This document shows, in pieces, positions 14,670-39,064 of a DNA stretch of 64,000 bases. Below the pieces are notes generated by a model. That model was not told the DNA's origin, searched no databases, and saw only the letters and a list, made by a program, of their open reading frames with translations. A program made the position numbers and the translations under genes. The stretch's first letter is position 1. The number at the start of each line of letters is the position of its first letter. The DNA comes from Candidatus Krumholzibacteriota bacterium (GTDB taxonomy: Bacteria > Krumholzibacteriota > Krumholzibacteriia > JAJRXK01): the NCBI GenBank assembly GCA_963806035.1, contig CAWDWO010000007.1, positions 36,973 to 100,972 on the forward strand, given 5' to 3'.

Positions 14670-15424
14670 CGCGCTTCCCTCCCCTCTGGCCGGGCAAGTT
14701 CCAGCGCGAGATAGGGTCCCGCATCGATACTCGACACCAGAGGGAACGCGAGCGCGAGATTGAGTGAGGAAAATCGCAGTCCCAGATGCAGGCTGCCCCC
14801 CCTTGCGTCACCCCGGTACGCGAGCGAAAGCGGAGCGAGCAGCAGCTCGAGACCCGCGCTCCAAATGCCTCGCTCCTCGAAAGGGGAGTCCTCTCGCATG
14901 AGCGCCGCCGCCCAAGCGCTTCCTTCCAGCTCGAATACGTATGCGGCGCTCGAGGGAAGTCGAACACCTTCATGCTCCAGAGGAAATTCCTGCTCGATAC
15001 CGAAAGCGAAGCCGCGCGCCGTGAGCACTAGAGCCAGTTCACCCCGCGAACTCAGCTCGCTGGCGATCGTCTCCACCTCTCTCTTCTGGCGCTGCACTCG
15101 GGCGTGCACGCGGAACCCGGTCCCGGTGAATCGAAACCCCAGTCCCAGCTCCTGCTCGGAATAGGCTGCCGCGCGCAGCTGGCCGGCAAGAGTCCAGACG
15201 AGAACGGAGGAACTCAGGCCGAAGGCTCCCTCCAACCAGCTCTGACTGGAGGGCGCGAAGCTGACCGGGTTTCCCGCACCCAAGCGCAAACGGGCAGAGG
15301 GTGCGCGCATCCAGCAATCGCCGGGCAGAGCTTCCATGCGCCTCGGACCCGAAAAGGTTTCGGCGTGTGCGCTGAGCTGAAGGATGAAGAGGAGGGCGAT
15401 GACGAGCAGCCCCGGCCACCTCAT
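14666..15424 (-). CDS. Hypothetical secreted protein (Gly/Ala-rich, possible outer-membrane barrel)
   Basis: I chose Met45 as start. This gives the signal peptide MRWPGLLVIALLFILQLSAHA and an ATGA overlap with the upstream gene's stop. The ORF-track start at 15556 is less likely. Overlaps the next gene's start by 4 nt. Confidence 0.45.
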   Translation of the reverse strand: MRWPGLLVIALLFILQLSAHAETFSGPRRMEALPGDCWMRAPSARLRLGAGNPVSFAPSSQSWLEGAFGLSSSVLVWTLAGQLRAAAYSEQELGLGFRFTGTGFRVHARVQRQKREVETIASELSSRGELALVLTARGFAFGIEQEFPLEHEGVRLPSSAAYVFELEGSAWAAALMREDSPFEERGIWSAGLELLLAPLSLAYRGDARGGSLHLGLRFSSLNLALAFPLVSSIDAGPYLALELARPEGREAR

Positions 15425-17058
15425 GGTCGCCGTCCCAGTGCGACCAGCGCCGTCCAGCGACGCGGCGCCAACTCTCCGCCTTCGCTCTGTACCACCACCA
15501 CATAGGCCCCCATGGGAACCCGTTGGCCGCGGCTGGAGCGTCCGTCCCAGATCCACTGCCGCAAATTGCCCCCCGAGGTATCGTTGCCCAGCTCGGCGAC
15601 GGTCGTCCCCAGGAGATCCCTGATCTCGGCCTGGACTCTGAGCCCGCTCAGCTCGGCGTGCAGCAGCACGTGGAGGATGTCTCCTTCGCCGTCGCCATCG
15701 GGACTGAAGGGATTGGGAGAGAGCGCCAGGCCACTCTCTGGGCTGCTGAGGGCGGCGGCGGAATTCTCCTCTCCCGGACTGGGAGAGCCCGGAGAGAGAA
15801 ACCAGGCACTGGGAGCCTCGGGACTGACGAAACCACGTTCCATGCTCCTGCCGGCTTCGCCCACCAAATCGTCGCCGTAGCGAAGTTCGTCCACGACGGT
15901 TCCGCTGTCGTCACGCAAGAGAATCCGGTCCGCGAACTCGCTTCCGCCACTGGAGCTGTTGTTGAGCGAGGGCCATCCACCATCGGGGAGAACGACGGGT
16001 AGCTGCGATGAGAGCGCAAAGACGGATCGAAGTGCCTGCGGATCGGAGGAGAGGAGCGCGAAGCCCTCAGCGGAAAAGCCGAGTCCATCGAGTCCTCGCC
16101 AGTCCTCGGTGGCATCGGTGATCGCCCAGCCGTCGAGCACCTGTGGTGCGTCCGGTTCCCCCTTCAACTCGATCCACTCGGGGTGATCCGCGAGCGGCTT
16201 GGCCATGACCTCGTTCAAGAGAACCGGCCCGGGTCCCACTTGATATCCCAAGCTGGCGACCGCGGTGCTGTCGCTTCCCCAAGAGAGCTGGAAACGATGG
16301 CGGCCGCGGCTCAGCCACGCTTCCACCCGGCTTTGCAGTGTGTCACCGGGAGCGGCCTGAAGGACCTGTTGTTCCAGAGGAGTCGCGTCCAGGCTCCAAC
16401 GCAGCGAGAATTCCTGCTGGGGAGCGAAACCATCGACTTGGGCGGAGAACTCGAGTGCGACCTCTCCGGGCATTGCCAGGAAGGACGGCGAGGCACTCAG
16501 CCGCAGAAGATGCAGACTCTCGGCCCGCGCATTGGGACGGCCCGGAGTGGGAGGACTCAGGGCGGAGAAGTCCGCTCGATTGTCGTCGCTGTCGGCGCCG
16601 TCGGGGATGCGACCCAAACTCTCACCTGAGACATCCGGCGCCGCTTCGCCCTCTCCCAGCCCTTCGATTTCGCCCCAAGCCACTCGGTCGAGGATCGTCT
16701 CGTCGCGAGCCAACCACAGAGCATCCGGACCGTTCTGCAGATTCAGTGCTGCCTCGTCGTCCCTTCCTGCGACCTCGGCCCCACCCACGAGATAGAACTC
16801 ACCCGGTGCCAGACTGAGTCCCGCCTTCGCCGTCCACACCACACTTGGCTGTTCGGGCGCCGCACCATTGACGAAGAGCAAACGGACGCCATCCAGAGAA
16901 ATCGCGGTGTCGCCGTCGGCGTAGAGTTCCACGAACTCCCGGCCCCCGTCACTCCCCTTTGGATCGTAGAGAATCTCGTTGAGAACGAGTTGAGCGTGCG
17001 CGCGGGCGGGAAGCGTGAGACAGAGCAGAAGACCGAGGATGCGAAGCATGTGACGCAC
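15421..17058 (-). CDS. Secreted lamin-tail-domain (LTD) protein with C-terminal FlgD-Ig/T9SS-type sorting domain
   Basis: Signal peptide MRHMLRILGLLLCLTLPARAHA. Two LTD-like modules begin LNEILYDP..G..EFVEL and LLNEVMAKP...EWIELKG. The C-terminal segment LSPNPFSPDGDGEGD...YVVVVQ resembles the Por/T9SS CTD. Confidence 0.65.
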   Translation of the reverse strand: MRHMLRILGLLLCLTLPARAHAQLVLNEILYDPKGSDGGREFVELYADGDTAISLDGVRLLFVNGAAPEQPSVVWTAKAGLSLAPGEFYLVGGAEVAGRDDEAALNLQNGPDALWLARDETILDRVAWGEIEGLGEGEAAPDVSGESLGRIPDGADSDDNRADFSALSPPTPGRPNARAESLHLLRLSASPSFLAMPGEVALEFSAQVDGFAPQQEFSLRWSLDATPLEQQVLQAAPGDTLQSRVEAWLSRGRHRFQLSWGSDSTAVASLGYQVGPGPVLLNEVMAKPLADHPEWIELKGEPDAPQVLDGWAITDATEDWRGLDGLGFSAEGFALLSSDPQALRSVFALSSQLPVVLPDGGWPSLNNSSSGGSEFADRILLRDDSGTVVDELRYGDDLVGEAGRSMERGFVSPEAPSAWFLSPGSPSPGEENSAAALSSPESGLALSPNPFSPDGDGEGDILHVLLHAELSGLRVQAEIRDLLGTTVAELGNDTSGGNLRQWIWDGRSSRGQRVPMGAYVVVVQSEGGELAPRRWTALVALGRRP

Positions 17059-17134
17059 CTCCCGGGAGACTCGAGCGAAGGAGGCGCGAAATTTCTCAGT
17101 GCAAAAGCGAGAAAGAAGCCGGCGGCGAAAGAGC

Positions 17135-19369: not shown

Positions 19370-19517
19370 CGCGATTCCACTGCTCCGGGAAGGCTCTTGA
19401 AAGAGTCGGGGTGCGGGGCCGACCCGAGGTCCACGCGTTCCTTCGCGGCGAGGACGAAGTTAGGCGTGGAGGACTTGCTGAATACTCTACATACGATGGG
19501 ACCCGATTCGCCACCCG

Positions 19518-19551
19518 GAAACAAAAGCGCCGGCGGAGTCCGCCGGCGCTC
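19518..19551 (-). terminator. Rho-independent terminator downstream of the STAS gene
   Basis: A perfect 10-bp GC stem (GCGCCGGCGG/CCGCCGGCGC) with a 3-4 nt loop is followed on the minus strand by TTTTGTTTCC. It sits 25 nt after the stop of the 19576..19935 gene. Confidence 0.75.
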
Positions 19552-19575
19552 AGGAGTTCAGGAAAGCGGATTTTC

Positions 19576-19935
19576 TCAGGTCGTCGCCGATGCGCTCACG
19601 GCCTCTTCGACCGTGGCGAAGGCCTCGAGGATGTTCTGGAATTCCAACAGTTCGAACACTTCGTAGACGTCGGGAACCATGCCAACCAAGCGTAAGTCGC
19701 CGCCGTTTTCGCGGATCTCGCGAATGACGCTGATGAAGATGCCCCAGCCGGCCGAGGAGATGTAGGAGACCCGTGAGAGGTCCACGATGATCTTGTAACG
19801 CTTCGACTGAATCAGGGACTTGATCTCCCTCTCGAATTCCGCCGAGGTGGTCGTGTCGATGTAGCCTGCCACTTCCAGGACCTGCTGATCCGGGCAGGAT
19901 TCGTGCGCCTTCGAAATGACCATGATCCCATCCAT
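19576..19935 (-). CDS. Anti-sigma-factor antagonist (STAS domain, SpoIIAA/RsbV-like)
   Basis: 119 aa. The STAS fold signature is ...LEVAGYIDTTTSAEFEREI.....YKIIVDLSRVSYISSAGWGIF. The conserved phosphorylatable Ser lies in the YISSAG context. Confidence 0.85.
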   Translation of the reverse strand: MDGIMVISKAHESCPDQQVLEVAGYIDTTTSAEFEREIKSLIQSKRYKIIVDLSRVSYISSAGWGIFISVIREIRENGGDLRLVGMVPDVYEVFELLEFQNILEAFATVEEAVSASATT

Positions 19936-19991
19936 CGAAAGCCCATCTCTTTCTATGCTTGAGCTACCTTAGCTAAGCTATTGCAGCAGAA

Positions 19992-22527
19992 TTAGTTAGG
20001 TATTTTTCCCGTTCCGGTGTCCACGGGCTCCATTCCCGGCTCCTGCGACACTGGCGGCTGCTCTTCATCCGTGTGCAAGCTTTGGTCCAAGCCATCGCCG
20101 TGATCGGTCTGATTCTCCAAAGGGGCCCCCTTCTGGGGATTCAGCCCGCGGCGCCGCAGATAGAGGCGCCGTTTGGACTCGTTGCTGAGGTCCAGGCGCA
20201 CCAGCTCGTCGTAGACGATCTTGGCATTGGCCTCGTGACCCAGCTCGCAGAGGTGATCGGCCAGGCGTTTGGCACCCAGGCCTGGATCCTTTCGCACCAG
20301 CTCCAGAATCGCCTCGCGCCCTTCGACGGTGAGGCGCCGCATTCCGGACTGCGAGGCCCGGCCCGCGAGGGCCTCCTCTCCCCCGCGTTCTCTCATCCGT
20401 CGCCAGCGGTAGAAGGTGGAAACGGAGGTGCCGTAGCTCTGGCAGGCCTCCTCGATGCTCATCCCCTCGAGTTCCACCATGTCCAGCAAGCGCTGCCGGC
20501 GCTCGATCTCCAGCGAGGCCGGCCGCAACTTCTCCTTCACCGCCACCACCGTGATGTCGTCGTTTTGCGCGTTGCCTCCGGTGAAGGCCGCGATGTCCTC
20601 GTTGAACGCGGCGATGAATTCCTCCGCCGTCCGTCCCGCATTCTTGCGCACACACTCGATGAGGCGCTGCTCGCCGTACTGCTCACGTGCCGCATTCATC
20701 GCTTCGGTCACGCCATCGGTGTAGATGAGAAGCAGATCGTCCTGTTGCAGCTGGACCTTCTCCACTTCGATCGTCTTGGAGAACAGCTCCGGATCAGGCA
20801 GCGAAATCCCCACCGGGAACCCGGCTGGATTCAAGAAGAAGACCTCATCGGTTTCGATGCGATACAAGAGCATCGGATTGTGACCGGCCGAGGAGTAGCT
20901 GATCACGCGATTGCGCGAATCGAGGATGATGTAGAACAGGGTGATGAACATCCCGCGGCGCATGTCCTCGGTAATGAAAGTGTTGACGCGGCTCATCACG
21001 TCGCTGGCCGAGTGATTTCCCCTCGCCTCCATGCGCATGGCGGTGCGGATCATCGTCATCACCAGACTGCCCGGGATTCCCTTGCCCGAGACGTCCGCGA
21101 CCACGATTCCCACCGTGTCCTCGTCCACCGCGAAGAAGTCGTAATAGTCGCCGCCGACCTCCGCTGCCGCGCGGTACATCGCTGCGATCTCGTAACCGGA
21201 GAGATCCGGCATCGCGGTCGGCAACAGGGTGTGTTGAATCTCCCGCGCGAGCTGCATTTCCTTCTGGAGTCGTTCCTGCTCGACCAAATGCGATTGTGCG
21301 TGACGGAACTTGGATGCAATTTCGTTGAACGCGGCCGCGATCGTGGAAATCTCCTCGGGACCGTGCACCTCGATGTCCTCCTCGAGCACGCCGTCCCCGA
21401 TGGCCAGCACGCCCTCGGTGAGCTGCTGGATGGGGCGTACGAAGAGATTTACCATCACGAGTATGAGCAGAATTCCCACCACCAGGATGATCAGCCCGAT
21501 TCCCATGGCGTGCAAAAGCGCCGCGCGATAGTGCTGCTCCAGGTCCGAGGTCTTCAGTCCCAGCACCACTCGACCCAATTCGACCCTCTTCCCGGATGGC
21601 CCTTCGATGTCCACCGGATAATTCAGCTGCAACACTCGTCCCGAGTCGAATTGGATGCGCGTCCATTCTCCCGCGTTCTTTCCATGATCGATGAGCCGGC
21701 CTGGCTCGGGATGCCAAGAATTGAAGAGATTGTCCAGGACGCTGTCGGCCCAAATGCTGCCGTCTTTCCCGTGCACTACTCGAGCGAAGGCGATGGTGGA
21801 ATCGTGACGCGCAAGTTCGCTGACGCCCTGTTGCAGAAGCGTCCGTTCCACCGAATAGGGATCGCTGCTCGCGAGCACGCTCCTGGACTGCACCGCCAGA
21901 TCACGCGCGAGCGCCTCAATCCGACTGAGGTCTTGATCGAAGATGGCCTGCCGCTGTCGAAAGTGCACGACCGAGAGGGCGAGGATCACCAGGAGTGCCA
22001 GCCCGAAGGAGGCGCGCAGGGTGAAGCGCATTCTCAAACTGCGGTGCAGAGCGGAGAACTGAATACCTGGAATCCAGCGATCGATGGACGGACGCCGATC
22101 CATGCACATCCGGAGTTCGTTGCTTCCGTCGACGGTCGTGTAGTCCACCTCGTCCATGATCCGATTGATGAGGTAGATTCCGAGCCCGCCGCGCTTCCCG
22201 ATCGCCACGTAGTGGTCCAGGTCCGGGACTGCAACCGAGCCAAAGTCGAAGGACTCACCGGTATCCTTCAGGATGATCTCCACCTGACCGGCGAAGTACC
22301 TTACCCGGATGGTGATCTCGCCACCCTGATTGTGATAGGAATGCTGGATGATGTTCGTACAGGCTTCGTCCACCGCGAGCTTGAAATTGGCGGTGTCCGC
22401 CGGATCGAATCCGGCCTGCATGCAGATGCGTGCCACGAAATCGCGTACCTGAGCCAGGTGGCTCTCGCGGGCCTCGATGACGAGCTCCGCCCTCTTGATC
22501 CGGCCGCCGATCACTTGGGTCCGTCCT
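19992..22527 (-). CDS. Membrane sensor fusing an RsbW-like HATPase serine kinase, periplasmic domain, HAMP, a PP2C (SpoIIE/RsbU-like) phosphatase and a C-terminal transposase-type HTH
   Basis: N-terminal GHKL anti-sigma kinase motifs (VDEACTNIIQHSY...GGLGIYLI). TM1 ASFGLALLVILALSVV, a ~170 aa loop, then TM2 AMGIGLIILVVGILLILVMV. A HAMP linker precedes a PP2C domain (GGDYYDFF..VADVSGKGIPGSL...YTDGVTEA). The C-terminal MSIEEACQSYGTSVSTFYRWRRMRERGGEEAL matches the IS630/IS481-OrfA type HTH. I set the start at the GTG near 22527; the ORF-track start at 22814 overlaps the upstream gene and looks like read-through. Confidence 0.75.
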
Positions 22528-24526
22528 TCTCGCCGGCGCCCTGCTCGAGGCGGTCGATCCGTGCCTTGGCCTCTGCAATGTTGTTCTGAGCGCCCTGGTT
22601 TCCGGGATCGATCTTCAAAATCTGCTCCCACTGTCGAATCGCTTCTTCGTAGTTGCCATCGGTGAAGGAACGGAGGCCCGCCAGGTAGTACTGGCGCACC
22701 TGCTTCTCCTCGCTCGGGCTGAGGCTGGCCGGTCCCGACCTGCGGTGGGCGATCTGGTCGAGAAGCGCCAAGGCTTGCGCATGCTTGGGCTCCCGCTTCA
22801 AAACCTCGCGGCAAAGCGCTTCAGCCTGGTCCAGCTCGCCTTTCGAGAACGCCTCGAGCGCTTCGGTGAAGCGGCGCTCCTGTGCCAGCTCCCCGCGGGC
22901 GCGTTCGGCGTCGGCCTGCGCTTGCTCGCTCTCATGGCGAGCGGCATCCAACTCCGCCTTCCAGCGCTTCAGGGCCGCGGCGGGAGCAGGATTATCCGGG
23001 TCGAGAGAGGCTACGACGCTCCAGGCATTCAATGCGGATTCCCAGTCGCCTGCCTCCTCCGCCGCGGTGGCTCGTGAGGATGCGCTTGCCATCGCGCTGG
23101 CCTCGAGGTCCTCCACCTGCTGACGGAGACGCGGCAGCATGGGATAGTCCGCAGCGAGATCGCCCAGAGCGTTCAATTCCGCTCGCGCTTTCAGCGCATC
23201 GTGTTGGTCCAGCGCGGCCCGGAGTTGATTTTCGGTGTCTTCGATCCGGAGCGTGCGCCGCTGCTCGTCGGCCTTTTGCTGCGTGACGCGCTTTTCCAGC
23301 TGCTGCAGGCTTGCCAGCTGGGTCCTCAGAGAATCATCGGCCACACCAAGACTGCGGGCCCGCGCCAGGCTCTTCTGCGCGTCCTGGAGCGAATCCCGGC
23401 TGAGCGCATCCTGGAAATCCTGCACCGCACTCGTGATTTGGGCCTTGCGCCAGTTCTCCACGGCTTCCATGCGCGCCTGCATCAACTCTTTGGCCCGCAG
23501 TTCGTCGCGGTGACGGCGCCGATCCTTCATGTCCTGGCCGAAGTACCAGGAGAGGCTCAAGAACTGGGATGATCCCAATTCTCCGCCCGAACGAAACGCA
23601 TAGTCCACGGAGTAGTCCCGCCAGCGTCCACCCAGACCGGCGTTGAAATGGCCATCGTCGTAGCTGAGACGCAGGGTGTAGAGTCCTTGGTACTCGGCTT
23701 CCGCGCCCAGTCCGAGACGCTTGGCGGCGTACTGTGGTTTGTCGTAGACCGCGGCCAACTGGAGAGCCGTGTTCTCGCTGAATTCATGCCGTTTGCTCAG
23801 GGCAAAGCGCTGCGCATAGGGCAGCGTGTCTTCGCGCTCGATGAGCCTGAAGCTCGGTGCGATCAGATTCTGGTATACAAAGGAGAGCCGGACTCCCCCG
23901 AGACGCGGAGGGACCCAGGCCAGGCCCAAGTCCATGCCACCGCTGGTGCTCTTCTCTTCCAGATCCAGGCTGTGGATCTTGGCGCTCGTGCCCAAATCGA
24001 GCCTGCCGCCGAGGTACGGCAGCCTTCCCCCATATCCGTAACTCAAGAAAAGCTGTGTCTCTCCGTAGCTGATGCTTCCGGTGGGTCGGCTGGTACTGTC
24101 GTAGGTTTCGATGTCCCCCAGTTTGAGCCGCAGGAAGCCGATGCCGAAGCCTCCGGCGTTCAGAGTAGGATAGGCGAGTCCCAAGTAGCCGTAGGAGGCT
24201 CCGCCATCGAGACCGTAAAGACGGTTGTAGCTGAAGGTGAGCTGTGATCCTCGAGCATGGGGCAAGAGTGCCGGGTTCCAGAAGCAGGCGCTGGCATCAT
24301 CGGCCAGGCCCACCATCGTCGATCCCAAACCCACTCCGCGCGCGGTAGGACCGAGCTTGAAAATAGACTCGGTGCCTCCACCGTCGTCCGCGGCTCGGGC
24401 CAATCCCGCAGGGAAGAAGCACATGAGCAGAAGCAGCAGAAGGGCAGAAGCCGCGGCTCCGCGCGCGTTCTCACAGCGCGAAGTGTGCCTCGAGGTGGGC
24501 ACGAAGTTCGGATAGCCGCGCCTCAT
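22511..24526 (-). CDS. PorV-like (UPF0164/T9SS shuttle-type) outer-membrane beta-barrel with C-terminal coiled-coil/TPR extension
   Basis: Signal peptide ALLLLLLMCFFPAGLARA. The N-terminal motif GARGVGLGSTMVGLADDASACFWNPALL matches the PorV family consensus G.GGA.VA..DDASA..WNPAGL. The ~340 aa barrel region is Gly/Tyr-rich. The C-terminal ~330 aa is charged coiled-coil plus TPR-like repeats (YYLAGLRSFTDGNYEEAIRQWEQILKIDPGN). The start was chosen to give an ATGA overlap with the adhesin stop at 24523-24526. Confidence 0.6.
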   Translation of the reverse strand: MRRGYPNFVPTSRHTSRCENARGAAASALLLLLLMCFFPAGLARAADDGGGTESIFKLGPTARGVGLGSTMVGLADDASACFWNPALLPHARGSQLTFSYNRLYGLDGGASYGYLGLAYPTLNAGGFGIGFLRLKLGDIETYDSTSRPTGSISYGETQLFLSYGYGGRLPYLGGRLDLGTSAKIHSLDLEEKSTSGGMDLGLAWVPPRLGGVRLSFVYQNLIAPSFRLIEREDTLPYAQRFALSKRHEFSENTALQLAAVYDKPQYAAKRLGLGAEAEYQGLYTLRLSYDDGHFNAGLGGRWRDYSVDYAFRSGGELGSSQFLSLSWYFGQDMKDRRRHRDELRAKELMQARMEAVENWRKAQITSAVQDFQDALSRDSLQDAQKSLARARSLGVADDSLRTQLASLQQLEKRVTQQKADEQRRTLRIEDTENQLRAALDQHDALKARAELNALGDLAADYPMLPRLRQQVEDLEASAMASASSRATAAEEAGDWESALNAWSVVASLDPDNPAPAAALKRWKAELDAARHESEQAQADAERARGELAQERRFTEALEAFSKGELDQAEALCREVLKREPKHAQALALLDQIAHRRSGPASLSPSEEKQVRQYYLAGLRSFTDGNYEEAIRQWEQILKIDPGNQGAQNNIAEAKARIDRLEQGAGEKDGPK

Positions 24527-27500
24527 CGTGTCACCGCGATTCTGAAGTAGATCTCCCCGCCGGCCGCACGCACACGACAGATGTAGACCCCGTTCCGCAC
24601 CTCTTGACCGAGACCGTTGCGCCCGTCCCACAGCACATCACCGTCATGAATTCCAGGCTCCGCTTGCGAACTCCCGGCGGCAAAGCTCCACTGGCGAACT
24701 CGCTTTCCCAAAAGATCGAAAATCTCGATCTCGACCGGACCGCTCTGAGGGAGTGAATACGAGAGAGTGGCGGGCTCTCGACTCGGAACGAAGGGATTGG
24801 GATAGCTGTGAGCATCGAACTCGGAAGACGCCTTCGCCGTGACACTCGGACCGGCCAGGATGAGCGAGTGGCCGCCCCCCTCTTCGTCGAGTAAGGCATA
24901 GCTGAGCGCAAATCCCCCGGAGTCCAGGATGGAAGCGCTGCCGCCGTCCAACGCAAAACGGAAGGAGACATAGTCCGCATCGGCCTTGGCCTGCACCCCG
25001 ACGCGGAACGCGGCCGAGCTGTCCGAATCGATGACGAGGTCCACGGGAACGATCACGGGATTACCATTGACCGCCGCGCTCCAGTTCTGAGTGCCGTCGG
25101 TACGCCGCACCTGAATCGTCTGCAAGAAGCTCGACGGATTGGCGAAGGGCTGTCCCGCGTCGTCGACCAGGTTCAGCGCGAGCTGGGTGAAGTGCACCGC
25201 TTCGGGGTGACCGTTGCTGATGTGAACGGCAAAGCGCTCGTAGATGCGGTCGCTACCGATCAGCGGGCCGGTGTCGCTCAAGTCGCTGATTTCAAGCCGC
25301 AGTGGATCGGCCAGAATCGATAGCGCGACCGAACTCTCGGCCGTCGCTTCGCCGGCCGGCAATCCGCTGTTCTCGTCTAGGGGGATCTGCTCGGCGGTCA
25401 GAGTGATCTTCTGTACGCCCAGGTCCAAGCTGGTCGGACCCTGTAATCTCCACACGACCTCGTCGCTCGGATCGACGAGATCGACGCTGGCCGTCTTGCC
25501 ATCGAGAATGCTGAAGCCGGAGGGAACCGAAAGGTGCAGCCGTGCTGGCGGTAGGGTTTGCGCACTGCCACTGAGTACAAAATTTCCATGAAGTTCGACG
25601 ACCGCTCCCGGCGGCAGTTCTCCCCGATCGCGGGCACTGTTGGGCTCCAGAATCGTCAGTCGAGGAACGGCATGGGCGGCTTCCACGACCTGAAGATTCA
25701 CGCTCGCGCAGGTATCCGCCAACACGCTGCTGCTCTGCACGTCAGTGGCGTGTGCCACCGTGCGCAGCAGCAGGCCTGCCGCCGGGGTATTCGGGCAGAG
25801 AACCTGCCAGTTCACCGTGGTCTGTCCATCCGTCAGCATCTGACGGGCATTCCCTCCCACCAGCGCCAACTGCGGCGGCAAGAGCAGCTCGAGAGATCGC
25901 TGTTGCAAATTCGCTGGCCCGTCCACTTCTCCCTGCAGGGTGAAGGTCTGTCCCGTACTCAGAACGGTATCCTGAGCGCCCTGGGGCGAAATGATGCTCA
26001 AGCTGCAAGTATCGAAGGCGGTCCCGCCGAAAACCTCGAGCTGCAAAGTGCGGCTGGAGGCGCTGGTGAGCGGCCGCGCATCGGGATCGTTGGCGTCCAG
26101 GTCCACGCGCGAGAGCGCCGCCACCAGGTCGACGGTCTGTACCGTCGAAGGGGCCACGAGTCGAATCGTCGCTTCGGGATTGGAAGGATCGAGCTGAACC
26201 GGAAGAGTGCTTTGGGAGTCCAGAGTGAAACCCTGCAGACTGTTGAAATCGACCTCCACCGGCAACCAGGACCCGGATTGCTGTACGGAAGCATCCTGAT
26301 CCACCGCGAAACGCACGGAAAAAATCTGGCCTGGCGATACGGACATGGCGAGCGGATCGACGCTGTCCACGAGTTCTGCGCGGAAGCTGAGGGAGACTGG
26401 CCGCTGAACCTGAAGATTCGCCAGATCGTCCAGCGGACTCTGGGGCACGATTTCCTGCTGAGTAGTGGAGGACAATGCGCGCACGATCAAAGCCCGCAAG
26501 GACTCCGGTCCTGGAGTGGTCGTGATGCTCGTGTCGAAGTACAGGGTATCGATCTCGCTCGACTCCAGGCGCGGAACCGAAATGTCCGCCGCGCTCGAAG
26601 CGGGCGTCGCGCTTCCAGCCAAACGCACGGTGAGCGAATCGATGGCCTCGCCGGCGTTGTTGCCCACGACGACCCTCACCCCGATGTGCTGGCGGGTGTT
26701 GACTTGACTGAGAGGGGCACTCGGGTTCAGGGCAGTGGTCGAAAGAATGCGCAATCCGGCCGGATCGAAGAGGGTGAGCGTACCGTTCGGCAGAGGCAGA
26801 TCCGAGTCGAAGGGCAAACCGTTCTGTGTGCCTCGCACCCGCAGGTAACCCTGCGGGGTGCCCAAAATTAGATCCGAGGGCAAGGCCAGAGGGGAGAAGG
26901 CGAGCTGGGTGGTGCCCGTGGGCACGCTCGCCGGCGAAAGCGGATCGAGCACCGCCCCGATGCGCGCGCCCTGAGGCTCGCCGAAGTCAAGACGTGTCGT
27001 GAGGGGATCGAGTACGAGCTGTGCCTCTCCCTGGTTCGTCAGCGAGAGTTTGAACCCGACCGTCGATCCACGCAGGGCCGCGGCTGGATCGAGAGGCGTG
27101 GCAGCGAGGACCAGATCAGCCGGCGTTTCGGTGCTGATCGCGTCGACCTGAATGAGATCCGCGGAGAAGGGGAAGCTGTTCTCCGTGCCTGCCAGGTGCA
27201 GCTGTAGGTCCTGGCTCTGGCTCCCCAGGGCCGCATCCACCGTGGTGGGACCGAAGCTCAGCTCGGCTTCCTGGCCGGGTGCGAGAGCCAGAGAGCTGCT
27301 CAAGGCGCCGCTCCAGAGCCCGCCTCCAAAGCTCGCGAAGGAACTGGCCGCGTTCAGGGAAACCGTGGCGCCACCGTTGTTCTTGACCCGTGCCTTCAAG
27401 AGTAGATTGGCCCCGTGGTGGATTCGAGACGGGGTCACGCTTTTGTCGACCAGCTCGAGCTGTGATGCGCTGCTCACGCTGAGCGGCGTGGCCGAGGAGT

Positions 27501-30500
27501 CCGCAGGTGCCGTGAACTCGGCCCCTGCTACCGTCCCCGTGACGCGCGCCACGAAGCGGTAGTTCCCCGGCGGGGTGGCACTCCCCACTCTGACTCGCGA
27601 AGAGAGATCACGCTGACCACCGGCCGCGACTGCTCCCAAGGGGTCCTGATCGACCAGGGTGAAATCCGCCGCCGGTGAGGACTGCAATGCCAGCTGCGAG
27701 ATTCCGACGGAACCCGCGCCGAGGTTTTCCACCGTGACGCGAACGTTGAGAGTATCCCCCGGTACCGCCTGCGTCTCGTGACTCACCGAGCGAATGGCAA
27801 GGCCGCTGACCAGAAACGAGCCCTGCGGAAGCACGATGAAGCTCGAAACTGCTTGCCCGTGCGTGTCCTGCCCCGCCAGTTGCAGCGTGGGCCGGAACGA
27901 GCCCAGAGCGAAACTCGCGGGGAGGGTCGCCGTGCTGAAATTGAGGACTTGGCTCGACGAGGCCGGCACCACGGTATCGCTGGGGAGCGAGGCGGCGAGG
28001 ACCCCTCCCTGTCCATCCTCGATCTTCAGTTGCGAGAGTCCAGCGTCCAGGATTGCGTCGACGCCCCCGGTATTCTGTAGCGTGATGCTGAAGTTTAGAT
28101 TCTGCCCCGGCACCGCGGCCGCGGGAGTGAGCGCGCCATCGAGCGCCAGTGAGGCAGGCGACACGAAGATCGCGTCCGCGCTGCCCATGGCGGCCGCGCT
28201 CGCGAAGGAGACGGTGACCGTTCCGGCAGTGAGAGGAGACGCCAGCCGCAGGCCCACCATTCCCGATCCGTCGCTCAGCCTTTGAATCCCGCTGCGCTGG
28301 GGATCGAGATCGTCGGAGATGATCGCTCCTCCGTTTGCGCTCACGTCCACTGAGCTTCCCGCCGCCACCACGTTTCCGAATGCGTCGCGAATCGGTCCCG
28401 CGCTCAGCCGCGTCACCGAGACCCCATTGGCCGTGTTCTCGCTCGGATCCACGATGGGCACCGGAATCGTTCCCGAGGGCGAAGCGGGAACCACCAAGAG
28501 ATTGTTCAGACTGCCCCCAACCGCGGGCAGGGCGGCCAGGCTCACGTCCAGGGTCAAGGGACCGGCCTGCTGGGCGCTGAGATCCACCGTGGCTTTCCCC
28601 GCCACCAGCGAAGCCGGAGAAGGTGTCACGCTCAGCACGGATGGACTCGAGTTGAACGCCAGCTCGCCCGCCAGGTCGACCTCGTTGCCCGCGGAGTCCC
28701 TGGCGACGATCGTGAGAGAGTTGGGAGTTCCCGCGGTGAGAAGCGTGTCGCTGATCGAAAGCTCGAGATGGTCCGCGGAGCCTGGCAGAGCCTCTACCGT
28801 CCAGCGAACGGTCTCCAGCGAGCCGGGCGTGCCGTCCAGGATGGAGGCGCCGACCCGGTGCTCTCCGCTGCTCGTGGAAAGATGGAGTACAAAGGACAGC
28901 TCTCCGTTGGCATCGGTCGAAGCGAGACCATCATCCGTGGGTACGCTGGGGTCTTCCAGACTCGCTCCCGAAGGAGCGCTCAAGAGACTCAGACGCACGG
29001 GAACCCCACTGACCGCATTGCCATAGCTGTCGGCGACTCGCGCGAGCAGCGTGACCGTCGTTCCGGCCGGCGCGCTCTGCAGCGTGTCACCCACGGCGCT
29101 GAGCCGGAAGGCGGCGCCCGCCGACACTTCGATCAAAGGGCTCTGGGCGTTGATTGAAGGCTGCGATTTCAGGCTTGCCGTGACGGAAAACTGCTCCACC
29201 AGGGTGTCCCGCGCACTGGCCGAGAGAAGGCCCGCGTTCAGCGCGCCTTCAGAGGGAGTCAGGACGATTCCGGTTCCGGTGGAACTCAGCTCGACGGAGT
29301 CCGCTGCCGCCAGCACCCGGTTGCCCGCTGCATCGAGGGCGGTGATCGTCAGGGGAAGAGCCTGACCCGCTATCACGCTGGTCTGCGAGGGAAGCACGGC
29401 GAGCGAGGCAATGGGTCCGGCCACGGTATTCACCACGAAAAGGACCGTCTCCCGCGCGACGGGACTGCCATCCAGAATTCCCACTCGCAGGCGCAGGGTC
29501 TGCACCGTCGAGTCGGTGAGTACAGTGAAAGTCGCATGGCCGTTGGCGTCGCTGCTTGCGGGGCCGGCCTGGAGTGTGCCTCCCTCCAGCTGCAGGACAT
29601 TCAGCGTCTGGTTGCCAACTGAGTTGCCCAAGGCATCCAGCACCTGCACCCCGAGGTCCACGCTCGAACCCGCGGTCACGCCGGACAGGGTATCCGCGCC
29701 CGTGCTCACCAGTTCGTAGGCACTGCCCGAGCCCACACTCAGAAGCGGACCCAGATAGCCCTTGCCCTTGGCGCTGAGACGAATGTGATAGCTTCCCGCG
29801 GTGTCGATGCGCTGCAGGGAAGTCGAAAAGCTTCCCCCGATGAGCTGACCCTCAGAGACGTTGAGCGGAAGCGGGACCACCACGGTGCTGTCCGCACCGT
29901 CGACCAGGTCGAAGGAAAAGCTGTCTGATGCGGCGCTGGCCAAATTTCCAAAGGCGTCGTACGCCGTTGCACTCAAGGAGAAGGGGGCTCCCGCGGTCGC
30001 GGTCGCGGGATAGGCGAGCTGATACTCAGCCACCATCGTGCCGGCCAAGATTTGCAGGCTCCCGCTATCTCCGTCCAAGAGCGCCGCCGAATCGTCCGCG
30101 CTGAAGGCGTGCGTACCGGCCAAACTTCCCTGGTAGTAGACCGTGGCCTGTCCGCTGACCGCGAGGTTCAGCGTATCGAGATACGGTCCGCCGCTCTGCG
30201 CCGAGAAAACCAGACCGGTCGCGGGATCTGCGTGCACGATGACGGTGGCCGAAGAGCTCGAACTCAGATTGGCGAAGCTATCCACCAGCGACAGCCCGAA
30301 GCTGCCTTCGACTCCAGCCTCGACCGCGCCCGCGGGCGGGGAGAGCCGAATCGCGCTCGCGTTCCCCACTACCGAGCTATAGACGAGATCGTTGACCGCG
30401 CCCGAGGAGACTTGACTCGAGCTAGCATCCAGAACGTCCTGAAGTCCGGCCGTGGAGGGCGCGCGGTACATCACGTGGATCAGCCCGTTCCCATCGGTCA

Positions 30501-33075
30501 AGCCGCGCTGCGTGGCCAGACCGAGAGAATCCGTCTCTCCCACTCCGGAGAGAATCCCGTCCAGCAAATCGCTGGAAAACAAGGTCACCTCGGCGCCCGC
30601 TACTGGATTTCCATAGGAGTCGCTCGCCAAAGCCGCGACGAGTTCCGTGCCACCCACCACGAGGTTCCTCGGCCCGTTGGGTTGAAGGACGAGACTGCTC
30701 ATCGGACCCGCAGTGGCGATGGCGTTGAAGTTCACCGAAGGCGCGAAGGAAGATTCCGCTGACAGACTCTGGAGACCCGCCACCGTGCCCAACTCCCAGA
30801 GAGCACAGCTCGCGTATCCGAGCGAATCGCTCAGGGCCGTGTTCTGGTCGCCGGGAGTGAGAGGGTCCGTGTCCACACGTCCACCGTCGGCCAAAATGAA
30901 CTGCACGGTGGCTCCGCTCACTGGATTGCCAAAGGCATCCAGCGCGCGCGTCCGCAGAGCTTGCGCGACGGCAGTCCCCACGGTGGCGCTCTGTCCGTCT
31001 CCCGCGGTCAGCTGCAGATCGCTTGCGGGCGCTGCGAGGAAGCTCAGATCCGCGCTGCCGGATGCCGATCCGTCGCTGAGGATGACTGTCAGATCCTCCG
31101 CCAGCGTGTTGGTGAGTTGCAGCTCGACTCTTCCCGAATCGGCCGCTGCGAAGCTGTAGTCCGCCTCGCCGCCGGGCAGAGGAGTCAGGCTTCCCGCGCC
31201 GCTGCTGGCCCAGTTCAGATTGCTCCCGTCGCCCGAACTCGAACTCGAAAGGTGCACCGTGCCGCCGTAGTTACCCACGCGATTTCCCGTGGCATCCAAC
31301 GCGTCCGCGCGAATTGCGAGGGCCGTTCCCGCGCTTCCGATGGCGCCTGCCGGCAGGCTCAACGCAAAATGGTCCAGTGGCCCGGCTACGAATTCCAGAT
31401 TCAGTGGGGGACCTACCGGCAAGCCGTCGAGGCTCGCCTGTGCTGTTCCCGCGCCGGGGGTGGTGGAGCGCAAGCTCGCATGAAACTGTCCCGAGGCATC
31501 GGTGCTCGCGTCCAGTTTTTCGAGCTGCCACGCGGCCGGGAGCGTGAAACCGATGCGACTCGAGTCGATGTTCGCTACGGCATTGCCGAAAGCATCCTCC
31601 ATACGCAGAAGCAAGCCGATGGTGTCGACTCCGTCGGCGACCGCGGAGGCATCGCCGGAGAGCGTGGTCGAGGAAGAATCGACGGAAGAGGCCGTGAACT
31701 CGACGAGGGGTTGGGAGCTGAGCGTCACGCCCGCGGCCGTTACGCTCACGGGCCTGACGCCAGCGCTCGTCGAACGAAGCCTTGCCGCGAATTTGCCGTC
31801 AGCCGCGCTCGATCCACTCAGCTTTTCCACTGCCACCGCACTGGAGCTGATCACGATCTGCGCGCTGTCGACGCCAGCCACTGCATTGTCGAAGGCATCG
31901 CGCAGGGTTGTCTGCAGGGTCGTGAAATCAGAGCCGTCGGCGAGCGCCGGCCCGGCAAGGACAGCCGTGGAATGATCGGGGTCCACCGGTCCCGCGCTGA
32001 AGTCGAGATCGAGAGTGTCGCTCAGCGCCACTCCGCCCACTGAAACCGCGAGACGGCGGGCCGATGCGACAGTGGTGCGCAGAAGCGTCGCGAAGGACCC
32101 ATCCAGGGCCGAGTTCGCCGCCTGCTTTTCGACGCTGAGCCCATCCCCCAATACCGTGAAAACGATGGAGGAGGAATCGACTTGCGAAACCGCGGTTCCG
32201 CCGCTGTCGCGAAGAACGAGATCCACTTGGATAGCGTCGACACCGTCGGCCACGGCAGACGTGCCGCCACTCAGACTGGATTGTACCGGGTCGACTGCTC
32301 GTGGTGTGAAGATCACGGTGGGGTGAGTGTCGAGCGTCGAGCCGTCCACGACCGCATCCAGGCTCCAAGAGCCCGCCAGAAGCGTTCTGACTCGCAGGGG
32401 AAAGCTGCCGTCGGCCGCGCTGGCCGCTGTCGGCTTCTCGACCGAATAAGCGGGAGCTGACAGTGCAACCGAAATGCGCGCGCTGTCCACCCCGGCAATC
32501 GTGTTCCCGAACGCGTCGCGCAGAATCAGAGTGACCGAGCTGAAGGCGCTCCCGTCGGCCACTACCGGAGAAGTCGCACTCACGGAGCTCTGCTGAGAAT
32601 CGACTGCGGCGGGAATCAGGGTGATGGTGGTTTGATCGAAACCCAAGTCCGGAGCCGCGGAAGATCCGTCGACCACGGTGAGCCCGACCGGCAGCGAGTT
32701 GAGGTGGGTGGCGCGAAACAGGAGGTCCACTCCGGAGGAATCGGCGGCAATGCTCGCTGAACTCACCGCGGGACCCCCCACGAAGCGGTGATAGCTTCCG
32801 GAGGAGTTGTCGCTGAAGAGGTCGATCACCTGTGAGGCGGACACCGGCGAGGGATCACCGGTACTGTCCACGCTGAGGACCCGAATGGGCAGGTACTCCC
32901 CCGCGGTCGCCGTGTCCGAGGAGGTCTGGATCATCAGCGCGGATGGGGGTTGCGCGGCAAGGGAGGCGCGGGGCAGAAGCACACAGAAGCACACCGTGCT
33001 GAGGAGCAGGGAAACTCGTCTCAACGGTGCGAGACGATCGTGAATGCGCGTGAGTGGTCCCGGCATGGTGTTCAT
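24523..33075 (-). CDS. Giant (2850 aa) secreted adhesin-like protein with tandem Big_1-type Ig-like repeats, CARDB-like repeats and a C-terminal T9SS sorting domain
   Basis: Signal peptide ...LLLSTVCFCVLLPRASLAA. At least four ~100-aa repeats carry V(A)DG.D...L.LRDAFGN.V..VDS..I (invasin/intimin Big_1-like). Multiple (V/L).(V/L).N.G.a segments are CARDB-like. The C-terminal YPNPFVPSREPATLSYSLPQSGPVEIEIFDLLGKRV...GVYICRV is the T9SS CTD signature. Confidence 0.8.
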   Translation of the reverse strand: MNTMPGPLTRIHDRLAPLRRVSLLLSTVCFCVLLPRASLAAQPPSALMIQTSSDTATAGEYLPIRVLSVDSTGDPSPVSASQVIDLFSDNSSGSYHRFVGGPAVSSASIAADSSGVDLLFRATHLNSLPVGLTVVDGSSAAPDLGFDQTTITLIPAAVDSQQSSVSATSPVVADGSAFSSVTLILRDAFGNTIAGVDSARISVALSAPAYSVEKPTAASAADGSFPLRVRTLLAGSWSLDAVVDGSTLDTHPTVIFTPRAVDPVQSSLSGGTSAVADGVDAIQVDLVLRDSGGTAVSQVDSSSIVFTVLGDGLSVEKQAANSALDGSFATLLRTTVASARRLAVSVGGVALSDTLDLDFSAGPVDPDHSTAVLAGPALADGSDFTTLQTTLRDAFDNAVAGVDSAQIVISSSAVAVEKLSGSSAADGKFAARLRSTSAGVRPVSVTAAGVTLSSQPLVEFTASSVDSSSTTLSGDASAVADGVDTIGLLLRMEDAFGNAVANIDSSRIGFTLPAAWQLEKLDASTDASGQFHASLRSTTPGAGTAQASLDGLPVGPPLNLEFVAGPLDHFALSLPAGAIGSAGTALAIRADALDATGNRVGNYGGTVHLSSSSSGDGSNLNWASSGAGSLTPLPGGEADYSFAAADSGRVELQLTNTLAEDLTVILSDGSASGSADLSFLAAPASDLQLTAGDGQSATVGTAVAQALRTRALDAFGNPVSGATVQFILADGGRVDTDPLTPGDQNTALSDSLGYASCALWELGTVAGLQSLSAESSFAPSVNFNAIATAGPMSSLVLQPNGPRNLVVGGTELVAALASDSYGNPVAGAEVTLFSSDLLDGILSGVGETDSLGLATQRGLTDGNGLIHVMYRAPSTAGLQDVLDASSSQVSSGAVNDLVYSSVVGNASAIRLSPPAGAVEAGVEGSFGLSLVDSFANLSSSSSATVIVHADPATGLVFSAQSGGPYLDTLNLAVSGQATVYYQGSLAGTHAFSADDSAALLDGDSGSLQILAGTMVAEYQLAYPATATAGAPFSLSATAYDAFGNLASAASDSFSFDLVDGADSTVVVPLPLNVSEGQLIGGSFSTSLQRIDTAGSYHIRLSAKGKGYLGPLLSVGSGSAYELVSTGADTLSGVTAGSSVDLGVQVLDALGNSVGNQTLNVLQLEGGTLQAGPASSDANGHATFTVLTDSTVQTLRLRVGILDGSPVARETVLFVVNTVAGPIASLAVLPSQTSVIAGQALPLTITALDAAGNRVLAAADSVELSSTGTGIVLTPSEGALNAGLLSASARDTLVEQFSVTASLKSQPSINAQSPLIEVSAGAAFRLSAVGDTLQSAPAGTTVTLLARVADSYGNAVSGVPVRLSLLSAPSGASLEDPSVPTDDGLASTDANGELSFVLHLSTSSGEHRVGASILDGTPGSLETVRWTVEALPGSADHLELSISDTLLTAGTPNSLTIVARDSAGNEVDLAGELAFNSSPSVLSVTPSPASLVAGKATVDLSAQQAGPLTLDVSLAALPAVGGSLNNLLVVPASPSGTIPVPIVDPSENTANGVSVTRLSAGPIRDAFGNVVAAGSSVDVSANGGAIISDDLDPQRSGIQRLSDGSGMVGLRLASPLTAGTVTVSFASAAAMGSADAIFVSPASLALDGALTPAAAVPGQNLNFSITLQNTGGVDAILDAGLSQLKIEDGQGGVLAASLPSDTVVPASSSQVLNFSTATLPASFALGSFRPTLQLAGQDTHGQAVSSFIVLPQGSFLVSGLAIRSVSHETQAVPGDTLNVRVTVENLGAGSVGISQLALQSSPAADFTLVDQDPLGAVAAGGQRDLSSRVRVGSATPPGNYRFVARVTGTVAGAEFTAPADSSATPLSVSSASQLELVDKSVTPSRIHHGANLLLKARVKNNGGATVSLNAASSFASFGGGLWSGALSSSLALAPGQEAELSFGPTTVDAALGSQSQDLQLHLAGTENSFPFSADLIQVDAISTETPADLVLAATPLDPAAALRGSTVGFKLSLTNQGEAQLVLDPLTTRLDFGEPQGARIGAVLDPLSPASVPTGTTQLAFSPLALPSDLILGTPQGYLRVRGTQNGLPFDSDLPLPNGTLTLFDPAGLRILSTTALNPSAPLSQVNTRQHIGVRVVVGNNAGEAIDSLTVRLAGSATPASSAADISVPRLESSEIDTLYFDTSITTTPGPESLRALIVRALSSTTQQEIVPQSPLDDLANLQVQRPVSLSFRAELVDSVDPLAMSVSPGQIFSVRFAVDQDASVQQSGSWLPVEVDFNSLQGFTLDSQSTLPVQLDPSNPEATIRLVAPSTVQTVDLVAALSRVDLDANDPDARPLTSASSRTLQLEVFGGTAFDTCSLSIISPQGAQDTVLSTGQTFTLQGEVDGPANLQQRSLELLLPPQLALVGGNARQMLTDGQTTVNWQVLCPNTPAAGLLLRTVAHATDVQSSSVLADTCASVNLQVVEAAHAVPRLTILEPNSARDRGELPPGAVVELHGNFVLSGSAQTLPPARLHLSVPSGFSILDGKTASVDLVDPSDEVVWRLQGPTSLDLGVQKITLTAEQIPLDENSGLPAGEATAESSVALSILADPLRLEISDLSDTGPLIGSDRIYERFAVHISNGHPEAVHFTQLALNLVDDAGQPFANPSSFLQTIQVRRTDGTQNWSAAVNGNPVIVPVDLVIDSDSSAAFRVGVQAKADADYVSFRFALDGGSASILDSGGFALSYALLDEEGGGHSLILAGPSVTAKASSEFDAHSYPNPFVPSREPATLSYSLPQSGPVEIEIFDLLGKRVRQWSFAAGSSQAEPGIHDGDVLWDGRNGLGQEVRNGVYICRVRAAGGEIYFRIAVTR
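31395..32625 (-). repeat. Tandem intragenic repeats (~300 nt units encoding Big_1-like Ig domains) within the giant adhesin gene
   Basis: Four consecutive protein repeats recur, with a shared DNA core such as gtcgaca/ctccgtcggc(c/g)ac(g/c)gc roughly every 300 nt. They are diverged and the coordinates are approximate. Confidence 0.5.
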
Positions 33076-33234
33076 CGCAACCCAAGTGTCTGTGGATCAA
33101 GAACTTGGAAAGCAATGACCGTGCCCGGAGCGCGGGAATCCAAAACAGTATTTCAGGAAGGTTTCACGGGGGTCTCGGGCAAGAGAATCGCACGATCCCC
33201 GGCCGGCGGCGTACAGGAACCGGCCACAGCGCCC

Positions 33235-33753: not shown

Positions 33754-33813
33754 GGCTCAAATCCGCCCAGGACGGCGGACTTTGGACCACCCCGCTTCAG
33801 CAACGCCCCTGTT

Positions 33814-36456
<2,643 letters not shown>

Positions 36457-36494
36457 TGCTCATCCTCCCGGATTGATCCTCAATTGCGGGCAAA

Positions 36495-36521
36495 GCCGAG
36501 AGGAAGGCTCCTGCTCTCGGC
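36495..36521 (-). terminator. Hairpin downstream of the BNR-repeat gene (candidate terminator)
   Basis: 8-bp stem GCCGAGAG/CTCTCGGC with an 11-nt loop, followed on the minus strand by TTTGCCC. It lies in the 168-nt gap between the BNR gene stop and the ppdK start. Confidence 0.35.
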
Positions 36522-36624
36522 GCCCATCGCTAAAAGTGCCAGCGATGATAGGTTGCTGGTCGCGGAGTGTCAAAGTCCTCGACAGAGGCGAAAACGAAGG
36601 AGTGGAGGCCCCGGGCGCTGAGGA

Positions 36625-39048: not shown

Positions 39049-39064
39049 TCCATCTTCCTCGGGT

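Follow-up and report, generated by a model that had tools for sequence, protein, structure and literature searches.

Why should the gene of a giant surface adhesin be packed together with the genes of a kinase/phosphatase switch, and in which direction would information pass between them? The question is raised by a 64,000-nucleotide stretch of DNA from a Candidatus Krumholzibacteriota bacterium (hereafter, the 64-kb window). Four consecutive genes of the window encode a predicted adhesin with a type IX secretion system (T9SS) C-terminal domain (CTD), a predicted outer membrane (OM) barrel of the PorV/PorQ family with a helical/tetratricopeptide repeat tail (barrel-TPR), a sensor with a serine kinase and a PP2C phosphatase domain, and a small STAS protein. 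I lean towards the reading that the products of this conserved four-gene unit span the entire cell envelope and link the adhesin at the surface with a phospho-switch in the cytoplasm. An earlier note on this DNA had proposed that the signalling genes control the adhesin. The gene anatomy fits an inward flow, from adhesin and barrel to sensor, at least as well as that outward control, and a gating of the adhesin by signalling may coexist with the inward flow as feedback.

Is this gene order found in other genomes? Homologues of the sensor are numerous; each of the best 120 matches scores above 745 bits, and many bear the label Krumholzibacteria or Latescibacteria. At sensor identities of 86%, 73%, 59%, and 46%, the context was always adhesin, barrel-TPR, sensor, and STAS in this order. 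I then scanned one genome per species from the sensor side, which gave 78 loci, and all open reading frames (ORFs) of these loci were translated and searched with the window proteins. A full-length sensor orthologue was found in 56 distinct loci, 52 of which have at least 2.3 kb of upstream DNA. The barrel gene lies directly upstream of the sensor gene in 51 of these 52 loci, and an ORF with a CTD precedes the barrel gene in 50. The STAS domain is fused to the sensor or encoded by one or two downstream genes in 43 of 48 loci. The stop codon of the barrel gene overlaps with the sensor start by 4 nucleotides (nt) in 11 loci, the two are 0–2 nt apart in 10 more, and the distance is less than 30 nt in most. 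By record title, the loci come from Krumholzibacteriia, Latescibacterota, Eisenbacteria, Zixibacteria, FCPU426, KSB1, and Calditrichota, the taxonomy being as labelled in the records of metagenome-assembled genomes; a few loci carry odd labels, as written Hyphomicrobiales, Omnitrophota, and Actinomycetota. Neither barrel nor adhesin is present in loci whose match is limited to the generic PP2C or kinase domains (Acidobacteriota, Nitrospirae, Anaerolineales, and Rhodothermales).

The same link was seen from the barrel side. With the barrel as query, a word-indexed search gave 13 homologues, and an exhaustive profile search was needed to see the family. The latter gave 2675 representatives at E ≤ 1e-30, TPR-only proteins included, and most of the 150 best matches are full-length (600–700 amino acid residues, aa). 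In a metagenome scan with the barrel profile, the closest barrel-TPR relatives (loci L088–L094, L096, L098, and L102) have a sensor gene downstream and a CTD protein gene upstream. Shorter PorV/PorQ-like barrels at greater distance are often preceded by a CTD protein, but no sensor goes with them. For each of four distant barrels representing 50% clusters (322–423 bits), the gene of a CTD protein (1e-13 to 1e-20) lies upstream, and downstream there are partner-switching genes. Partner-switching genes follow all full-length barrel-TPR relatives that were sampled, including those with the kinase and the phosphatase as separate genes. Since the link between barrel and switch survives such rearrangement, which would be hard to explain otherwise, a functional connection is indicated. 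The earlier note had proposed the physical link of a T9SS cargo/shuttle pair with a partner-switching module and had suggested checking the gene order in relatives; both the link and the order hold across many candidate phyla when viewed from either side. The gene block is common among uncultured phyla of the FCB group.

How tightly are the four genes packed in the window itself? The stop codon of the adhesin gene (3′ end ...CGATGA) overlaps with the ATG of the barrel gene by 4 nt (ATGA), and the stop codon of the barrel gene (3′ end ...AAGTGA) overlaps with the GTG of the sensor gene by 4 nt (GTGA). In-frame starts of the sensor are possible at 22814, 22631, 22514, and 22436, and it is with 22514 that the orthologous N-termini align. 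Both overlaps are of the kind seen in translational coupling. The gap between the sensor and STAS genes is 56 nt, or 68 nt if STAS starts at Met5, the start used in the gene calls of relatives. The ORF coordinates and the folding of the 3′ region agree with the earlier description of four genes tightly packed on one strand, here the minus strand, with a 56-nt gap and a strong terminator after the last. Of the two overlaps described there, 4 and about 17 nt, the first is correct and the second is 4 nt as well. The window holds about 40 genes at a G+C content of 60–67%. Because nearly every one of them is on the minus strand, the co-orientation of the four genes carries no weight; the informative features of the block are its overlaps, its terminator, and its conservation.

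Alignment of the adhesin upstream region with three relatives exposed the element GGGCACGGTCATTGCT, which agrees with the sigma-54 consensus TGGCACG-N4-TTGCW at 11 of the 12 specified positions. The pattern GGCAYG-N4-TTGCW has its sole match in the 64 kb here (both strands; 0.13 expected). An element with at least 10 of 12 matches lies at the same position upstream of the adhesin in the close relatives L168, L169, and L170, in Eisenbacteria L020, L021, and L028, and in KSB1 L035. Of the 15 regions examined upstream of adhesin genes, 8 in total have it, and these 8 are from records labelled Krumholzibacteria, Eisenbacteria, or KSB1 (three phylum-level groups); the background of such matches is 0.026 per kb per strand, or about 0.003 expected per 100 nt. 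Sigma-54 most likely drives the four-gene unit. A sigma-70 promoter scan of positions 17000–36600 gave 2 sites against 2.2 expected, none usefully placed, and the sigma-70 consensus may not apply to this lineage. Scanned against Rfam, the entire window has no family at its gathering score, so that neither a riboswitch nor a known leader precedes the adhesin.

At the other end, the terminator lies 25 nt after the STAS stop codon. Its stem-loop reads GAGCGCCGGCGG-ACT-CCGCCGGCGCTT and is followed by TTGTTT; the T-tract sequence after the stem-loop is TTTTGTTT. The 76-nt terminator region folds at -36.9 kcal/mol (z = -4.28), and none of 200 shuffled sequences folds as well. Among 16 terminator-like sites in 17000–36600, where shuffles average 12.6 sites, no other comes near it in strength. 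Of 44 related loci, 12 have a hairpin of -12 kcal/mol or better with a T-run within 150 nt after their last STAS gene. The terminator is frequent among them without being universal. Viewed jointly, the promoter element, both overlaps, the short gap, and the terminator suggest that the block is transcribed as one sigma-54-dependent RNA of about 13.6 kb (Table 1).

Table 1. Position of the four genes and of their putative transcription signals in the 64-kb window.
Feature	Position	Strand	Remarks
sigma-54-type -24/-12 promoter element GGGCACGGTCATTGCT	33111..33126	-	ends 36 nt before the adhesin ATG
adhesin gene	33075..24523	-	2850 aa
PorV/PorQ-family barrel-TPR gene	24526..22511	-	671 aa
sensor gene	22514..19992	-	840 aa
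STAS gene	19935..19576	-	119 aa
intrinsic terminator	19518..19551 (hairpin 19551..19525)	-	12-bp stem, 10 G-C pairs, 3-nt loop, T-tract

The adhesin carries Ig-like repeats of the Big_1/Invasin_D3 type and of repeats of the CARDB/DUF11 type (Pfam Big_1, 1.8e-51; Invasin_D3, 3e-37; CARDB, 1.4e-08). A hydrophobic segment at aa 15–41, ending in ...ASLAA, is a predicted Sec signal peptide. The CTD (aa 2758–2847, about nt 24535–24804) matches TIGR04183 Por_Secre_tail, the type A signal of T9SS, at 24.8 bits against a cut-off of 23. Across phyla, it is the best conserved part of the adhesin; phmmer E-values with a 100-aa query are mostly 1e-12 to 1e-21, compared with about 1e-4 for the other CTDs of the same loci. 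Such strong conservation fits a cognate cargo-barrel pair. Two further proteins with a CTD are encoded in the window (17058..15421 and 39504..36625), which suggests that T9SS is in use. The latter, a BNR/Sortilin-repeat protein of 959 aa on the minus strand, matches the CTD regions of PorZ (2e-15) and PorU (2.9e-07) with its C-terminus and would be the third T9SS-type cargo of the window. In locus L169 (1334–10004; same contig as L001, sensor 86% identical), the adhesin is called as two ORFs, one of 2647 aa and one of 240 aa with the CTD. A frameshift, a premature stop, or an assembly error may have separated the secretion signal from the adhesin there.

The second gene encodes a signal peptide, a predicted barrel of 14 strands (aa 94–329, about nt 23540–24247), and a helical tail (aa 333–665, about nt 22532–23530). 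The protein scores 90.5 bits against a cut-off of 90 with the PorV family model NF033709 (over aa 91–362 of the longer ORF), and its tail matches TPR_2 at 3.4e-12. An AlphaFold2 model built from 13 relatives (mean predicted local distance difference test score, pLDDT, 82) has short N-terminal helices, 14 strands with pLDDT mostly above 80, and an all-helical TPR tail. In a Foldseek search of PDB with this model, PorV came first (8gl6_F, 5.2e-08, and 6h3i_F, 1.3e-06, both SprA-PorV complexes), ahead of FadL and TodX. PorV is also found with a sequence profile built from the 13 relatives (6h3i_F, 1.3e-08). A single-sequence PDB search found designed TPR proteins only; PorV appeared only by profile and by fold. 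The modelled barrel would have a PorV-like, 14-strand FadL-type fold. Is it the housekeeping PorV? This candidate was rejected, as the PorV equivalog NF033710 scores 18.7 bits against a cut-off of 250. The protein is below the other equivalog cut-offs too (PorQ, 50.6 against 220; PorV2, 44.6 against 325). These scores point to a dedicated PorV/PorQ-family paralogue with a long helical/TPR tail, so that of its first label, PorV-TPR, the family and the tail are kept and PorV proper is dropped. PorP/SprF (PF11751) does not match the window barrel; the orthologue of L008 scores 25.6 against a gathering threshold of 22.3. With an even number of strands, both termini of a barrel face the periplasm, and the tail of about 330 aa is therefore probably periplasmic. 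Binding of the adhesin CTD by the barrel is predicted, with indirect support from the adjacency to the cargo gene and from the high conservation of the CTD. The TPR-tailed subfamily is not described in the literature searched.

In the sensor, an RsbW-type serine kinase (aa 13–137) is followed by a first transmembrane segment (TM1, 165–183), a Cache-like domain predicted to be periplasmic (184–340), TM2 (341–359), HAMP (354–400), PP2C/SpoIIE (464–660), and a helix-turn-helix (HTH) of the IS481/HTH_23 type (668–783). The Pfam matches are SpoIIE (6.7e-49, 166.9 bits), HATPase_c_2 (2.2e-28, 99.2 bits), HAMP (9.8e-09), and HTH_23 (5.8e-08), and there are partial matches to RsbW and SiaA. Relatives of known structure, by sequence, are RsbW (6m36, 2.4e-16), RssB-type PP2C domains, Rv1364c (3ke6), and SiaA (6k4e). 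In an alignment of 15 sequences, down to 44% identity, the kinase residues N54, D84, G86, and G106/G109/G110/G112 of the N-box and G-boxes are invariant, and so are the Asp motifs of the PP2C domain (GGDYYD, ADVSGKG, YTDG, and NDDIT). An AlphaFold2 model of moderate quality (mean pLDDT 68) gives the 155-aa loop between the TM segments (pLDDT 83–90) a long helix and then a six-stranded sheet, which is Cache/PAS-like, and orthologues of the sensor carry PF17203 (sCache_3_2). No REC match was found in the sensor, whose centre is made up of TM, periplasmic domain, TM, and HAMP. It appears to be a SypE-like bifunctional protein, with an RsbW-type kinase and a PP2C phosphatase in one chain and a STAS gene next to it. 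The earlier designation as a partner-switching sensor is in line with the conserved kinase, PP2C, and STAS motifs, and is refined here by the SypE-like bifunctionality, the Cache-like domain, and the HTH. The order kinase-TM-Cache-TM-HAMP-PP2C-HTH is not described in the literature searched.

The C-terminal region of the sensor differs by lineage; it is an HTH in the window, an HTH plus three STAS domains in most Krumholzibacteria, and a TPR in KSB1 and Calditrichota, while L172 has none. The long form of most Krumholzibacteria (e.g. L008 10001–17102) is about 1400 aa in length, with the three STAS domains after the HTH. Its gene is followed by genes for a ParA/MinD-like ATPase, a TPR protein, and two STAS proteins, while the window lineage has the short form and one STAS gene. 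In locus L171 (3235–5933), the switch is split in three, namely HAMP-PP2C (534 aa), a STAS-kinase fusion (253 aa), and STAS (115 aa), directly after the barrel-TPR and a CTD protein. In locus L172 (7874–13827), the barrel-TPR, the sensor without an HTH, and STAS are followed by a GGDEF diguanylate cyclase and Wza/Wzz-type polysaccharide-export genes. This gene order hints at an output through cyclic di-GMP (c-di-GMP) or biofilm, reminiscent of HsbA-HsbD in Pseudomonas.

The last gene encodes a single-domain STAS protein of the anti-sigma-factor-antagonist type (Pfam STAS, 4.5e-21, 75 bits; TIGR00377, 5.1e-19). Its SYISSAGWG aligns with SYMDSAGLG of TM1442 and with the D-S-[AS]-G-L-G motif of SpoIIAA, which points to Ser61 (codon 19755..19753). 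This residue, retained in 86 of 89 STAS domains of related loci, is the predicted phospho-acceptor. Since the C-terminal region of the sensor varies between lineages, STAS is the more constant output of the two, compared with the HTH. The STAS domains of the module (L001–L094) share a near-invariant D-L-x-x-V-x-Y-I-S-S-x-G-W-G-I-F in place of the usual D-S-S-G-L-G, and this distinctive motif could serve as a signature for finding the module.

How might these parts work together? By predicted compartment, the adhesin is outside, the barrel in the OM, the TPR tail and the Cache-like domain in the periplasm, the two TM segments and HAMP at the inner membrane (IM), and the kinase, PP2C, HTH, and STAS in the cytoplasm. 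T9SS would export the adhesin, and a PorV-family barrel of its own would hold or shuttle it, in the way SprF does for SprB. The 330-residue tail of the barrel would hang into the periplasm, where the tail, or the CTD of adhesin not yet secreted, may contact the Cache-like domain of the sensor. HAMP would then shift the balance between the cytoplasmic RsbW-type kinase and PP2C. This balance would set the phosphorylation of Ser61 of STAS, as SypE does with SypA. The state of STAS and the membrane-tethered HTH would be the output, which probably feeds back on the operon, secretion, or adhesion and biofilm behaviour. I infer this mechanism solely from anatomy and conservation. A fuller version is offered more tentatively, as a possibility somewhat short of an even chance. 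In it, the adhesin on its barrel is an antenna for contact with a surface or prey, for tension, or for the state of secretion, from which the TPR arm acts on the Cache-HAMP kinase/phosphatase and thereby on STAS phosphorylation, and this envelope-spanning sensing is a standard module of many uncultured FCB-group phyla.

Each part is of a known kind (T9SS cargo, PorV/PorQ-family barrel, and SypE/SypA-like switch), and their coupling is undescribed in the literature searched. Full-text searches found no paper linking T9SS with partner switching, which agrees with the novelty claimed for this wiring in the earlier note, and nothing relevant on type IX secretion in Krumholzibacteriota or Latescibacter. 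The closest parallel for the first two genes is SprB-SprF of Flavobacterium johnsoniae, in which a giant repetitive CTD adhesin is likewise encoded directly upstream of its own OM barrel of the PorV/PorQ/PorP superfamily. SprB is bound by SprF (PMC9143113), cognate shuttles for T9SS cargo are known (PMC12618676), and the C-terminal tail of SprF is linked to a periplasmic partner (PMC12635249). A barrel with a periplasmic C-terminal extension toward an internal partner is thus common to SprF and, as predicted, to the window protein (PMC9143113, PMC12618676, PMC12635249). In contrast to SprB, the CTD of the window adhesin scores as type A, not type B, and the barrel ends in a helical/TPR domain of 330 aa where SprF has a short twin-cysteine tail. 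A kinase/phosphatase sensor gene that overlaps the stop codon of the barrel gene is not described for any SprF- or PorV-like gene.

For the last two genes, SypE-SypA of Vibrio fischeri is the closest parallel. There, too, an RsbW-type kinase and PP2C are in one polypeptide with a single-domain STAS substrate, which in the window is predicted. HsbR-HsbA of Pseudomonas aeruginosa and CrsR-CrsA of Shewanella are further systems of this kind. SypE and SypA are encoded inside a sigma-54-controlled surface-polysaccharide locus (PMC4517449), and a surface-structure locus with sigma-54-dependent transcription is predicted here as well. Unlike SypE, the window sensor has TM-Cache-TM-HAMP as its input, not a receiver domain, and has an extra HTH at the C-terminus; unlike in the syp locus, the partner genes are those of a T9SS-type adhesin and a barrel, not polysaccharide genes. 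As in Chlamydia RsbU, a PP2C with a periplasmic sensor domain, the phosphatase is joined to a periplasmic sensor domain. The RsbU system is defined in PMC11619594. The long form of most Krumholzibacteria resembles Rv1364c of M. tuberculosis, which has PAS, PP2C, kinase, and STAS in one chain (PDB 3ke6). Unlike in RsbU and Rv1364c, the kinase is N-terminal, before the membrane segment, an HTH is present, and the gene is coupled to those of an OM barrel and a secreted adhesin. Also unlike in those systems, no sigma factor gene was called among the annotated neighbours; no sigma-factor family was found among the called neighbours in L001–L009 and L168–L172, nor in the window ORFs scanned.

The proposed inward flow also has precedents. 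In FecA-FecR-FecI, NlpE-CpxA, and RcsF-IgaA, an OM protein informs an IM regulator via a periplasmic arm. The same logic is proposed here with unrelated protein families, and the proposed output is serine phosphorylation of STAS, unlike the release of an extracytoplasmic function (ECF) sigma factor or a His-Asp relay. What is known of T9SS regulation comes mostly from PorXY-SigP of a single pathogen. For a growing number of partner-switching systems, targets other than sigma factors are being found. The present module is a concrete, widely conserved candidate for how cells sense the state of a T9SS adhesin and, if the proposal is true, it extends partner switching to an input that starts at the outer membrane. 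It also offers functional names and a model for genes labelled only 'TPR protein', 'SpoIIE family phosphatase', or 'anti-sigma factor antagonist'; hundreds of genomes from Krumholzibacteriota, Latescibacterota, Eisenbacteria, Zixibacteria, KSB1, FCPU426, and Calditrichota carry these genes. In the PorA-PorY-PorX-SigP system of Porphyromonas gingivalis, a T9SS cargo informs an IM sensor through the periplasm (PMC12152298, in which cell-surface signalling is also discussed), as proposed here. It differs in that a histidine kinase two-component system and an ECF sigma factor take the place of the window's Ser kinase/PP2C/STAS switch, in that the gene of the small PorA does not adjoin that of PorY, and in that it has no barrel-TPR.

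Several observations weigh against a sigma-54-driven, T9SS-dependent sensory unit. No recognisable sigma-54 motif is found upstream in Zixibacteria, FCPU426, and some other loci. Since neither GAFTGA nor the Walker-A motif of an enhancer-binding protein occurs in any ORF of the window or of loci L001–L167, sigma-54 activation would depend on genes outside these regions; rpoN was not seen in the sequences covered either. The same holds for export, because no T9SS core gene (SprA/Sov, PorK/L/M/N, or PorU) is present in the window or in any fetched locus. The adhesin CTD and the barrel only just exceed the cut-offs of TIGR04183 and the PorV family model, respectively, and the periplasmic domain of the window sensor has no significant Pfam Cache match of its own. 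No STAS was detectable in five loci with enough downstream DNA. Finally, the lineage-dependent C-terminal region of the sensor means that the HTH is not a universal output.

Could the signal instead run outwards, in the direction of the earlier note? The Cache domain would then sense a small molecule or an envelope cue, the STAS switch would gate the secretion, display, or expression of the adhesin, and the barrel-TPR would be a shuttle or anchor only, with no part in sensing. Cache domains usually bind small ligands, and the sCache_3_2 of the orthologues agrees with this. SypE and SypA control surface-polymer production after transcription (PMC4517449), and the HTH of the sensor could act on the operon's own promoter. 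However, the near-constant overlap coupling of the sensor gene to the barrel gene specifically would be left unexplained, as would the linkage of the sensor to long-tailed barrels only, the short PorV/PorQ-like barrels beside CTD cargo being unlinked. I consider this account rather unlikely.

The sensor may otherwise report a secretion backlog in the manner of PorA-PorY. In this case, periplasmic adhesin would bind the sensor directly with its CTD and report the load of T9SS, and the TPR tail would be structural, for spacing or for docking to peptidoglycan or T9SS. The CTD of PorA indeed binds and activates PorY in the periplasm of P. gingivalis (PMC12152298), and the unusual conservation of the adhesin CTD across phyla is in keeping with such a role. 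However, a direct contact of this kind gives no reason for the strict adjacency and overlap of the barrel and sensor genes, nor for the conserved long tail, and it seems distinctly improbable.

The flanks of the unit are not conserved across phyla. The downstream genes unk774 and LTD are kept in Krumholzi-, Latesci-, and Eisenbacteria only, and the upstream genes for a DUF4388 protein and pyruvate phosphate dikinase (PPDK) are kept in close relatives only. That a cargo/shuttle pair merely stands beside an unrelated, stress-type partner-switching module by inherited synteny is very unlikely given the conservation data, for although close relatives are syntenic over the whole region, housekeeping neighbours included, and the window genes are co-oriented, the triad is kept in 51 of 52 loci of many phylum-level groups while the flanks change, its overlaps are of the translational-coupling kind, and the link persists when the switch is rearranged into separate genes. 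An inward coupling of adhesin and barrel to the switch remains the reading that I prefer.

DUF4388 and PPDK were considered as core members of the module and rejected, because their synteny is restricted to close relatives. The small DUF4388/PatA_N protein (33235–33756, minus strand), encoded just upstream of the operon, scores 37.7 bits against a cut-off of 38 with NF053729, the MshE-type c-di-GMP-binding motif, and could be a c-di-GMP receptor. It is conserved at this place, together with PPDK, in L168–L170 only. Downstream of the terminator, a minus-strand cluster (11410–19459) encodes a protein of 744–774 aa with two TM segments and no family match, an LTD protein with a weak T9SS-type CTD, an ORF of about 250 aa, a 577-aa protein weakly resembling GspK/HHH_3, and a 531-aa protein. 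The first two genes occur in the same order in Krumholzi-, Latesci-, and Eisenbacteria loci, not in KSB1, Zixibacteria, and FCPU426, and the last three are seen in Krumholzibacteria gene calls. Among the housekeeping genes of the window are argS, glyQS, aspS, glyA, purD/purE, tatC, mgtE, and the PPDK gene.

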